Source: a virus
Lineage: Duplodnaviria; Caudoviricetes
Virus record (IMG/VR): IMGVR_UViG_3300038492_000162
Span: 1 to 25,297 of that record
Direction: 5' to 3' (one strand)
Length of the DNA stretch: 25,297 nt
Shown here: positions 416 to 7,503 of the stretch, piece by piece
Numbering within the stretch: position 1 is the stretch's first letter
Layout of the letters: the number at the start of each line of letters is the position of its first letter
Translations under genes and position numbers: made by a program
Notes under the pieces: model-generated
Seen by the model: only the letters and a program-made list of their open reading frames with translations
Told to the model about the DNA's origin: nothing
Databases searched by the model: none

Positions 416-842
416 AGTACGAAAAAAACAACTCACCCGCATCTATCAAGATACCTGTCAAGTTTTCCGCAAGGGCTTCATGATCGACCCATTTGAAGAC
501 CCCGACGGCTTCAATGCCGCAATGCAGATTTACGAAGAGCACCTTGAAGACGTCCCGACGGACATGCTGTACGAGAGCTACAAAGCCGCAGTTCGAGCCG
601 TTGACGGCGGGAAGCGTGAGCCGTTCGCGCCAGAGATCAGGGCTGCATACTTCAATACCGTCATGTCGAAGCCAGAAAAAAAGGAAGAGCTCAAGGCTGC
701 GGAAGAAGAGTTGCCGCCATTGAGTGACAAACAGCGCTTGCACCAATTTCGCGTACTCGGTCAATTTTACGAAAGCGGCATGGCTTGCGCTATTGAGACG
801 ATCGCGGCGAGTCATGGCGCGAAAAGGATGCGAGATGAATAA
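408..842 (+). CDS. Hypothetical protein (possible helicase-loader-like replication accessory)
   Basis: ATG 408 overlaps the upstream stop with GGTGG before it. Helical protein with a PFAPEIR motif. Function is positional inference. Confidence 0.6.
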   Translation: MNEVRKKQLTRIYQDTCQVFRKGFMIDPFEDPDGFNAAMQIYEEHLEDVPTDMLYESYKAAVRAVDGGKREPFAPEIRAAYFNTVMSKPEKKEELKAAEEELPPLSDKQRLHQFRVLGQFYESGMACAIETIAASHGAKRMRDE

Positions 843-2610: not shown

Positions 2611-2640
2611 TAAGCGGAGAAGCGGGCTTGTATTATAAAA

Positions 2641-4790: not shown

Positions 4791-5080
4791 AAACACCCCA
4801 TAAATTCAAACACGCAATCCGCGAGATGGCATTCGGAAACGAAGCCGTCACCGTCTACTGTGAGCGATGCGGCCATATTGCTTTTGACTCACAGATCGGG
4901 CGACTTATGGATCCTAAGAAAGCGCCAGATACTTGCATCGAAGATACTCGGAGAATTGAACGCACAGATCATACCGGGCTTTCACCAATTGGTCTTTGCG
5001 ACGCGACAGGCGCAATCTTGTGGACCCAGACAGTTTCCGAGAGTTTGCAGCAAGGCGAAGAAGATCAATCTCCCGGTTAA
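4787..5080 (+). CDS. Hypothetical protein with putative Zn-binding His/Cys motif
   Basis: HKF...YCERCGH...C; ATGA overlap. Confidence 0.6.
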   Translation: MKTPHKFKHAIREMAFGNEAVTVYCERCGHIAFDSQIGRLMDPKKAPDTCIEDTRRIERTDHTGLSPIGLCDATGAILWTQTVSESLQQGEEDQSPG

Positions 5081-5115: not shown

Positions 5116-5144
5116 TTGCTTTTCATGGCGTACTTCCCTATATT
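5116..5144 (+). promoter_or_regulatory. sigma70-type promoter upstream of the tRNA-like RNA
   Basis: TTGCTT (5116-5121), 17 nt, TATATT (5139-5144), in an intergenic gap. Confidence 0.6.
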
Positions 5145-5166
5145 ATGGCTTCTTCCTCCAGTCACA

Positions 5167-5209
5167 GGCAGGGCTCTATTTTGCTGTGTTTCTGAGCCCT
5201 GCTTTCTGT
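5167..5209 (+). other. GC-rich hairpin in the leader (possible attenuator or processing signal)
   Basis: GGCAGGGCTC (5167-5176) pairs with GAGCCCTGCT (5194-5203), followed by TTCTGT. Confidence 0.5.
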
Positions 5210-5258
5210 ATCGGCGATAGCGCAGGATGCTTTAGAATTTCTGCCCCGGCTTTATACC

Positions 5259-5427
5259 GCGAAGGTAGCATATGTGGCGCGCTGTTTAGTCAGCGCTTGG
5301 TTAATGCGCCTGTCGGCGTCTCGGGTGCCTTGTACACCTTGACAGTCTATGTGCCCAAGTTACAAGGGTTTGGGCTTGTAGGTTCAGCCGACAGGAGAAG
5401 CGGGTTCAAAACCCGTCCTTCGCGCCT
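5259..5427 (+). ncRNA. tRNA-like ncRNA with the anticodon loop replaced by a kissing-loop domain
   Basis: Acceptor GCGAAGG/CCTTCGC + G73 + CC(T); U8, A14; D-stem GCAT/ATGC with GG; 9-bp CCTGTCGGC/GCCGACAGG; variable loop AGAA; T-arm GCGGG-TTCAAAA-CCCGT. No anticodon loop. Confidence 0.82.
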
Positions 5428-5428
5428 A

Positions 5429-5446
5429 TTTATTGGCATCAATAAA
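5429..5446. promoter_or_regulatory. Palindrome, possible operator
   Basis: TTTATTG-GCAT-CAATAAA, a perfect 7-bp inverted repeat 14 nt before the XRE gene. Confidence 0.3.
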
Positions 5447-5460
5447 ATGATGGTGGTGTG

Positions 5461-5802
5461 ATGAAGGAGTTAACGAAGGGTGAACGACTAAAGCTCCTCA
5501 GGCAACTAAGGGGATTGACGCAAGACCAACTTGCAAGAAAGTCTGATACTCACCAATCTGTTGTGTCGCAAATGGAAAAGGCTAATGTGTGGCTCACTTT
5601 CAAAGAAGCTGAGAGCTTCGCTGATGCACTAAAAGTGGACACAGCGTATTTCTTTGAGATGCCAGACGCGGATGCGGTAAAATATCTAATCTGCGAGATG
5701 GTGGATAGTGTGCGCTTAGACAAAAAGCTATCTATTTTGGACTACGCAAAGATACACAGAGATGCGCAGGTGTGGAATGAAGTGTACGGGGTGGGCAAAT
5801 GA
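5461..5802 (+). CDS. XRE/Cro-CI family HTH transcriptional regulator
   Basis: GERLKLLRQLRGLTQDQLARKSDTHQSVVSQME...FADALKVDTAYF. Confidence 0.92.
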   Translation: MKELTKGERLKLLRQLRGLTQDQLARKSDTHQSVVSQMEKANVWLTFKEAESFADALKVDTAYFFEMPDADAVKYLICEMVDSVRLDKKLSILDYAKIHRDAQVWNEVYGVGK

Positions 5803-6299: not shown

Positions 6300-6650
6300 A
6301 TGAAAATCAAAGCAATGCTTTTCCTTGCAAGCCTGCTTATGGGCTGCGACACACTCGCCCCGCCAGCGTCGCGGGACATCGTGCCGATCGAGCACAGCCT
6401 AAGAGCGTCAGGCGATACGCTTCTGACCTGCTCAGATGGCTACATGCTATTGACGGGTACGTTTAACGTGTTTGACTTGGAGATAAGGGCGTCGGGCAAT
6501 GGATCAATCACGGCCGGTGGCAAGAAAGACCTGGTGAAGTTTCGCAATGATTGGTATAGCTACGGCCCCTTCTTTGCCGAAGATACGGTTCGAGTAGATA
6601 TCGATTGTGGCTGCGTAATTGTTTCGGGCTTGCAGGAGGTGGAAAGGTGA
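6300..6650 (+). CDS. Putative lipoprotein
   Basis: MKIKAMLFLASLLMG-C: basic start, hydrophobic core, lipobox LMGC. Confidence 0.7.
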   Translation: MKIKAMLFLASLLMGCDTLAPPASRDIVPIEHSLRASGDTLLTCSDGYMLLTGTFNVFDLEIRASGNGSITAGGKKDLVKFRNDWYSYGPFFAEDTVRVDIDCGCVIVSGLQEVER

Positions 6651-7041: not shown

Positions 7042-7503
7042 ATGGCCCGCCCACTAAAATACAAAAAACCTTCCGATCTCAAGAAGGACTTCACAGCGTA
7101 CAAGAAAAAATGCGCAGAGAACACCCGTGAAGTCGTACTGCAAAAAGCGGGTGTCGTTCTTGAAGTCAAATCCCCCCTTCCAATCAACAAGATTGGCTTC
7201 TGCGCCTTTGCAGGCATCACCGCGCAAACTCTCAGAAACTACAAAGAGAAAAGTGACGGCTTCAGAGATCTTATTCGGCAGATCGAAACCGAATGCGAAG
7301 CCGACCTTGTGGAAGGCATACTGACAGGACGTTACGTCTGCCCCGCCGGTATTTTCACCTTGAAAAACCACCACAACTACGTTGACAAGAAAGAAATAGA
7401 CTTTAATGCAGTCGATCGAAACCTTGCTGGACTCCTTCACGGATTCGCAAACCGAAGATCTATTGAAGGAGGCTCTAAGCTGGCCGGAGCTGGAAAGGGC
7501 TAG
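7042..7503 (+). CDS. terS: Terminase small subunit (P22 gp3-like DNA-packaging protein)
   Basis: MARPLKYK...PINKIGFCAFAGITAQTLRNY...GIFTLKNHHNYVDKKE, directly upstream of terL. Confidence 0.88.
   Translation: MARPLKYKKPSDLKKDFTAYKKKCAENTREVVLQKAGVVLEVKSPLPINKIGFCAFAGITAQTLRNYKEKSDGFRDLIRQIETECEADLVEGILTGRYVCPAGIFTLKNHHNYVDKKEIDFNAVDRNLAGLLHGFANRRSIEGGSKLAGAGKG

Follow-up and report, generated by a model that had tools for sequence, protein, structure and literature searches.

Genomic context of the element

We studied a 169-base element carried by an uncultured aquatic phage, IMGVR_UViG_3300038492_000162; the window analysed here is the entire linear virus record of 25,297 bases, about 30% complete. 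The genes listed in the window were all on the positive strand, in the order DNA methylase, resolvase, small ORFs, HTH, TerS, TerL, portal, protease, capsid and tail, with a capsid of the lambda-like type. Judged by its proteins, the phage is apparently without close relatives: the closest protein to the large terminase was ~40% identical and that to the capsid at most 60% identical, named phages were less than 30% identical (among 10 of 54 matches listed), and a search with the large-terminase locus found no relative. The element sits in a 377-base gap between the end of an ORF at 5080 and the start of the HTH gene (Table 1). A 91-codon open frame running through it is likely not a gene; its single match among 1.84 billion proteins was a repetitive 1208-aa sequence. 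Two DNA runs from one aquatic study spanned the element with no differing letters and no joints, an identical assembly that argues against an assembly error, although both runs may be the record's own source and thus not independent support. At 5701-5730 of the window, run X1 broke into contigs and left a loose end, suggestive of a variant or of a repeat common to another sequence.

A sigma-70-like promoter candidate was located upstream of the element. The default promoter scan (9/12 needed) missed this site, and the motif was defined after inspection of the window and ten loci scanned alongside it, where three further sites were present; two of them lay upstream of tRNA-like genes in the relatives G002 and G004 (see below). 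The hairpin between the candidate promoter and the element was not called a terminator in the terminator scan; it could be a leader structure or a weak terminator, and could stop transcription from the candidate promoter.

Table 1 Features of the element and its surroundings (window coordinates)
Feature	Position	Strand	Basis or remark
Sigma-70-like promoter candidate, TTGCTT-17 nt-TATATT	5116..5144	+	Only such site in the window; 0.01 expected
11-bp leader hairpin, 17-nt loop, short U-rich tail	5166..5204	+	Between candidate promoter and element
91-codon open frame through the element	5186..5461	+	Likely no gene
Acceptor stem, 5' strand (G1-C72, C2-G71, G3-C70)	5259..5265	+	Fold, pair count
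D arm: 4-bp stem and 32-nt loop with extra 6-bp hairpin 5279-5296, two GG candidates	5268..5307	+	
Anticodon-position domain: 9-bp stem into three-way junction, linkers 0, 2 and 4 nt	5309..5395	+	z -4.09 alone
Hairpin A, loop 5328-34	5318..5343	+	Fold; loop compared with tRNA anticodon loops
Hairpin B, loop 5360-68, complementary to loop A (7 bp)	5346..5382	+	Fold, pair count
4-nt variable region and T arm	5396..5416	+	Only T-arm-like site within the window
Acceptor stem, 3' strand, G discriminator, CCU	5417..5427	+	CCA not encoded
Cro/CI-type HTH gene	5458..5802	+	30 nt 3' of the element; protein family matches
Small terminase gene	7042..7503	+	Followed by large terminase, portal, protease and capsid genes; protein family matches

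The tRNA frame

A first-pass annotation of this DNA had described a tRNA-shaped RNA with five frame helices, and all of them were borne out: the acceptor 5259-65/5417-23 (7/7 Watson-Crick), the D stem 5268-71/5304-07 (4/4), the D-loop hairpin 5279-84/5291-96 (6/6), the anticodon-position stem 5309-17/5387-95 (9/9) and the T stem 5400-04/5412-16 (4 Watson-Crick and one G-U). Thus 30 of 31 pairs were Watson-Crick, with pair probabilities of 0.83-1.0 for these helices. The D-loop GG placed at 5299-5300 was present, but a second GG candidate occurred at 5276-77. The element presented the marks of a tRNA, namely a 7-bp acceptor, a D arm, a T arm with UUC, U8 and A14, and two unusual features, A60 and U15/A48. 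Its 3' end reads G-CCU instead of CCA, and C5258 is able to pair with G5424, giving an 8-bp acceptor. The predicted fold contained 51 nested pairs (46 Watson-Crick and 5 G-U) with no mismatch, an MFE of -73.2 kcal/mol and a z of -3.73; none of 200 shuffles was as stable, and the z was the lowest of 61 windows (the element and 60 contig tiles). The reverse strand also folded (z -5.22), so that the strand assignment rests on the tRNA motifs and not on z. The second most stable tile, at 841-1009 (z ~-3.1, 25 shuffles), spanned an ORF boundary.

Could this be a decayed tRNA gene or the remnant of an integration site, without function? The element is an orphan with no encoded CCA and with the unusual positions just mentioned, and tRNA fragments derived from integration are common (PMC9897764). 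Against such a relic, the two halves of the frame show no mismatch in their pairing and the helices continue perfectly into the inserts, a promoter-like site lies upstream, and no integrase was present among the window proteins with a family match; we consider a relic highly improbable.

The three-way junction and its matching loops

The loops at 5328-34 and 5361-67, claimed in the first-pass annotation to be exact reverse complements, do form 7/7 Watson-Crick pairs. The description of the hairpin B loop was right in part: seven of its bases are complementary to loop A, but the loop has 5 nt in the MFE structure and reaches 7-9 nt only with its two closing U-G pairs open. The chance of such a loop match was 0.0003 for random loops, 0.0007 with the element's own letters shuffled and 0.0006 across all loop pairs, rising to 0.01 with G-U pairs allowed; a 7-bp loop match was reached in one of 413 overlapping window tiles and in none of 600 shuffles. 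The loop-loop kiss is statistically sound, the pairing itself being a prediction, and loops A and B probably do pair. The top helix of hairpin A had a pair probability of ~0.51. The loop-A hexamer was present twice in the element, the second copy being in the stem of hairpin B, and pairing of loop B with this copy in its own stem lay 4.6 kcal/mol above the MFE. The flanks of loops A and B were not reverse complements of each other. A 5-base direct repeat (5341-5345 / 5390-5394) brackets hairpin B, as if a module had been inserted with duplication.

Complementary loops on a three-way junction may also join separate molecules hand in hand, giving dimers or rings like those of the phi29 pRNA, possibly in head assembly. 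The arms of the element are unequal, and under the Lescoute-Westhof junction rule its linker lengths (0, 2 and 4 nt) may point them apart. The three-way junction showing two complementary loops is the design of pRNA, which has 174 nt (PMC4201828); that RNA lacks a tRNA frame and its kiss is of 2-5 bp, versus 7 in the element. Junction families A and C are, however, indistinguishable from secondary structure alone (PMC3258123), so the junction family is unreadable here. tRNA-framed RNAs adjoin terminase genes in two other loci (L230 and L255). The pRNA belongs to the phi29 family, whereas the window phage has TerS and TerL and a lambda-like capsid, and a phi29-type pRNA was rejected for the element, there being no Rfam match to that family and no phi29-type packaging genes. 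The first-pass annotation had suggested a self-oligomerising scaffold near terS: the gene is indeed 1.6 kb away, but seven ORFs lie in between, the phage encodes its own small terminase and the link to packaging is weak. An oligomer of this kind is very unlikely.

Comparison with known RNA classes

The claim that the RNA belongs to no recognised family stood: there was no Rfam match at the gathering level, only two chance matches at E 5.6 and 8.8. ARAGORN with default settings made no tRNA or tmRNA call at the element, and the RF00005 covariance model had no match in it even at E 1; the element was therefore missed by the tRNA and RNA-family scanners used in this analysis. Compared with canonical tRNAs it is long (169 nt) and lacks, 5 bp away from the core, an anticodon loop of the standard kind, with 7 nt, U33 and a purine at 37 on a 5-bp stem. 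The tRNA-like domain of tmRNA resembles it in having an acceptor, a T arm and a long helix replacing the anticodon arm. The element is not a tmRNA, as had been stated before: it has G3-C70 and not G3-U70, a D stem is present, no tag frame was found, and ARAGORN and Rfam were negative; its discriminator is moreover G73 instead of A73.

The nearest published anticodon inserts are those of the Lak megaphages, whose tRNAs have long inserts ('enigmatic' introns; PMC6784885), one of them in a tRNA-Thr(UGU); like the element, they combine a tRNA frame with a long structured insert at the anticodon. This precedent gives some ground for a precursor whose inserts are removed to leave a working tRNA, as proposed for the Lak introns, the more so as the element holds a Thr(UGU)-type loop (see below) that two cuts could place on the stem; with a relaxed score, ARAGORN also called 5259-5426 an intron tRNA, among 75 mostly spurious calls. 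Such a precursor is most unlikely all the same. None of eight single excisions gave U33 or a purine at 37, which rejects a one-intron tRNA; the 9-bp stem is uninterrupted and thus offers no bulge-helix-bulge, and no Rfam intron match indicated a group I core. The D-loop insert would need a third cut. With most of the distinct Lak inserts (table S6, PMC6784885, judged by eye) the anticodon stays readable, and several contain a tRNA-like unit nested within them, whereas the element has no nested T arm and its insert is a two-hairpin junction with matching loops. With no Rfam match and no single excision that yields an ordinary tRNA, the earlier proposal of a non-decoding tRNA mimic was upheld.

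The position of the element 30 nt before the HTH gene brings to mind an antisense or cis regulator of that gene or of phage mRNAs, in which the frame would serve only for processing. The C4 RNA of P1 and the CI RNA of P4 are RNase P-processed cloverleaf RNAs and provide the precedent. No C4 or CI match was found in Rfam, and complements of the loops in the window numbered 2, 1 and 6 sites, at the level of chance in the ~30% of the genome available; the longest antisense match in the window was one 11-mer at 5004, also at chance level (about one expected, as estimated). We therefore rejected a C4/CI antisense RNA as such, and a regulator of that type is very doubtful. In an intergenic part of the window (2616-2632), 11 bases of the element's variable region and T stem recurred, with the loop-A hexamer after them, again at chance level.

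Other classes were set aside as well. In YrlA, a bacterial Y RNA, the termini form the Ro-binding stem and the acceptor is closed by a loop; the termini of the element form the acceptor, and no YrlA match was obtained. A T-box riboswitch was rejected since there were no Stem I motifs, antiterminator, cognate downstream operon or Rfam match. The allo-tRNAs have an 8/4 or 9/3 arrangement, a 12-bp branch with a shortened T stem (PMC5389517), and the element has a 7/5 branch, or 8/5 with the C5258 pair. RNAs C and D of T4 (species 1 and 2 RNAs; AF158101 70908-71171) are stable RNAs without an established function (PMC9697503, PMC2330249). They are phage RNAs of 120-140 nt derived from a tRNA cluster, and RNA C ends in a T-arm-like structure and carries additional long hairpins; they fold without its D arm and anticodon-stem junction, are placed in a tRNA array whereas the element stands alone, and showed no sequence or structure match to the element model. 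On these comparisons the element is an uncatalogued tRNA-derived phage RNA, real and well-built, and very probably a selected, non-decoding one.

Searches for homologues and the L211 family

No homologue of the element with both loops was found in any phage, plasmid, viral, metagenome or genome scan, whole collections being scanned with exact patterns only, and there is thus no covariation support for the kiss. BLASTn retrieved nine phage records (best cover 21%) and five plasmid records (best cover 20%). Among viral sequences, the pattern with both loops gave 83 matches, none homologous with both loops, and that of a D arm with a distant T arm gave none of this design among 119 of ~122 matches taken. 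Pairs of ANA-type loops with a T arm matched 42 times (41 distinct), none of this design, in a narrow test that demanded one T-stem sequence; a T-arm variant pattern matched a single tRNA of ordinary length. Scans of metagenomes (27 matches) and of genomes (0 and 6 matches) gave none with both loops. A structure descriptor run across the 206 loci collected by that stage recovered, apart from two spurious folds, nothing but the element of the window itself. The single-sequence model of the element retrieved only ordinary tRNAs and, weakly, RNAs of the L211 and L232 types (see below), and nothing in the four capsid relatives. A literature search, mainly outside subscription papers, did not find a published description of this design.

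The pattern of the variable region and T arm had five viral matches, three of which formed one family (L211, L213 and L215), and L233, L239 and L243 were further members; the pattern of loop B with the T arm gave 14 matches, of which only this family was relevant. The L211 RNA (589-703, minus strand) has a tRNA frame of 115 nt in which two hairpins occupy the anticodon position; it is located directly after the small terminase gene of a satellite-like element with repressor and primase genes nearby, and has no full-length Rfam match. Around loop B the family and the element had 13 of 15 bases in common (2 of 3000 shuffles), about six unusual families having been examined for likeness to loop B. 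The loop of the first L211 hairpin is not complementary to the counterpart of loop B. The family is possibly a distant homologue that keeps loop B without its partner, and if truly homologous it counts against the kiss being essential.

Likeness to threonine tRNA and ancestry of the frame

Loop A with the next base matched the anticodon loop of tRNA-Thr(UGU) at 6 of 7 positions, a score that Gln-UUG, Arg-UCU and Ala-UGC loops reached likewise. Shifted by one base, loop B could form 7 Watson-Crick pairs with 11 of 17 Thr-UGU anticodon loops and at least 6 pairs with 15 of the 17, and it was a 7-bp complement to no other anticodon-loop type among 405 tRNAs from the collected loci. A random 9-nt loop would complement any of 39 common anticodon loops with a chance of 0.007, which becomes ~2% because three loops of the element were inspected. 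The Thr-type loop lies ~19 pairs from the core and is therefore too far away to decode.

The element shares features of its D stem, T arm and acceptor with phage tRNA-Thr(UGU), tRNA-His(GUG) and tRNA-Gly. The combination of its D stem and a GC start was confined to Thr-UGU tRNAs: of 344 tRNAs, 12 had this D stem, and all four of these that began with GC were Thr-UGU, in loci that the search pattern used had enriched for the stem. The body of the element scored best against phage His-GUG and Ile-UAU tRNAs, above Thr; a GCG start was mostly Gly (12 of 27 tRNAs), and the variable region and T arm occur in Asp, Glu, Gly and Ala tRNAs. Val(UAC) anticodon loops are similar to loop B as well, five of seven differing from it only at the first base, and the loop match could thus be inherited from two ordinary loops.

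Accordingly, the RNA might be real and selected with a loop match that is incidental or inherited, loop B being perhaps a family signature that binds something else. The anticodon loops of Thr(UGU) and Val(UAC) are naturally near-complementary, the L211 family keeps the loop-B motif with no partner, the second copy of the loop-A hexamer hints at a local duplication, and with G-U pairs the match is less rare. Set against these points are the 7/7 Watson-Crick pairs between two segments that are both at hairpin tips, with a chance of 0.0003-0.002; a hairpin recently duplicated in inverted orientation would not explain the match, because the loop flanks lack reverse complementarity. An incidental match is unlikely in our estimation.

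A T-box specifier loop carries a codon able to pair with the anticodon loop of a tRNA. Loop B could be read as such a specifier, with the codon ACA and a next base that pair on paper with the anticodon loop, and the RNA might act as a free-standing, T-box-like specifier in which loop B binds the anticodon loop of a host or phage tRNA-Thr(UGU) in trans and loop A is the built-in competitor that sets the threshold. The pairing counts of loop B with Thr-UGU loops and with no other type fit this scheme, as do the similar loop of the L211 family, which has no partner in cis, and the standing of tRNA-Thr(UGU) as a target of defence (see below). The partner loop of the element, unlike in a T-box, is in the same molecule, where its high local concentration should let it win; in natural Thr tRNA, the modification of A37 would make pairing with loop B weaker, and neither a T-box motif nor a T-box match in Rfam was found. 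We judge this scheme distinctly unlikely.

Odd tRNA genes in capsid relatives

Four capsid relatives were 41-55% identical, and two of them carried odd tRNA-framed genes. In G002 (C1:11202-11299, as L308; minus strand 3202-3300 in L309) a gene resembling tRNA-Leu(UAA) has 22 nt inserted behind its anticodon; 10 nt of the insert perfectly complement the anticodon region of the same gene (34 of 50000 shuffles), and removal of the insert would leave a tRNA close to canonical. Next comes a Val(UAC)-like gene whose loop has 6 nt. In G004 (L310, minus strand 6448-6586) a 139-nt tRNA frame with three extra hairpins, one with a palindromic loop, lies directly behind a strong promoter-like site, and after it comes a Phe-like RNA whose loop has 6 nt (minus strand ~6300-6380 of L310). 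As orthologues of the element these genes were rejected, with no match to its model. They do illustrate that tRNA frames whose anticodons are disabled or masked are kept in this phage group.

Proposed role of the element

Our preferred explanation, which we hold tentatively as a whole and including the last step, is a tRNA mimic that does not decode, masks its own Thr-type loop and works as a decoy. The element would be transcribed from the candidate promoter, and the tRNA frame would be a carrier recognised by host RNase P and by 3' trimming, in keeping with established tRNA processing; RNase P would cut at 5259, and 3' trimming and CCA repair would follow. Loops A and B would then pair, within one molecule or between two, hiding the Thr(UGU)-type loop, and the mature RNA, shaped like a tRNA, would serve as a decoy for tRNA-recognising host proteins. 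A decoy, matured by RNase P and CCA addition, had already been put forward in the first-pass annotation; the match of the loops to tRNA-Thr(UGU) gives that idea a more specific lead.

This explanation is favoured by the mismatch-free pairing and stability of the fold, by the loop match and the complementarity of loop B to Thr-UGU loops, by the promoter-like site common to the tRNA-like genes of two relatives, and by the self-complementary insert in G002. It is also favoured by the targets of two anti-phage nucleases: P2-OLD prefers tRNA-Thr(UGU) as its target (PMC12445682), and the same tRNA is a prime target of PARIS AriB (10.1101/2025.02.04.636281). It is weakened by the lack of a homologue with both loops and by an L211 loop that does not complement its counterpart of loop B; by the His/Ile-like body and Gly-type start, the half-formed top of hairpin A and the alternative partner of loop B; and by the leader hairpin, which could stop transcription. 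Phage tRNAs rescue from OLD by replacing the cut tRNA and not by competition (PMC12445682), and a non-decoding RNA cannot provide such a rescue. A further reading is a self-latching anti-anticodon RNA, with a mimic of the tRNA-Thr(UGU) anticodon loop and the exact complement of that loop, which exchanges its own loop for that of a real tRNA-Thr, shielding or sensing the tRNA cut by OLD and PARIS; we regard it as distinctly improbable.

Non-decoding tRNA-shaped phage RNAs (T4 RNAs C and D, the Lak inserts) have been described before and are unexplained; the element offers a handle, since its 7-bp loop pair can be disrupted and then rebuilt, and there is a specific candidate target in tRNA-Thr(UGU), which two anti-phage nucleases cut. 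If it is a decoy or shields a tRNA, it would represent counter-defence by an RNA, distinct from the known replacement of cut tRNAs; if it is only a clasp, it would be a natural version of the engineered tRNA scaffold.

Further tRNA-framed phage RNAs

Additional tRNA-framed RNAs were observed in the collected loci. One family (L232:1105-1238; also in L234, L242, L248 and L250) has long acceptor, D and anticodon-position arms, and the L232 RNA has no full-length Rfam match. Two RNAs with very long inserts were present on the minus strand of L255 (~1189-1414, just before the large terminase gene) and of L237 (~1000-1150). Finally, Roseobacter phage DSS3P8 (~6440-6620; L085:2465-2643) contained two unannotated tRNA-Glu-like genes in tandem, whose variable region and T arm are the same as those of the element.
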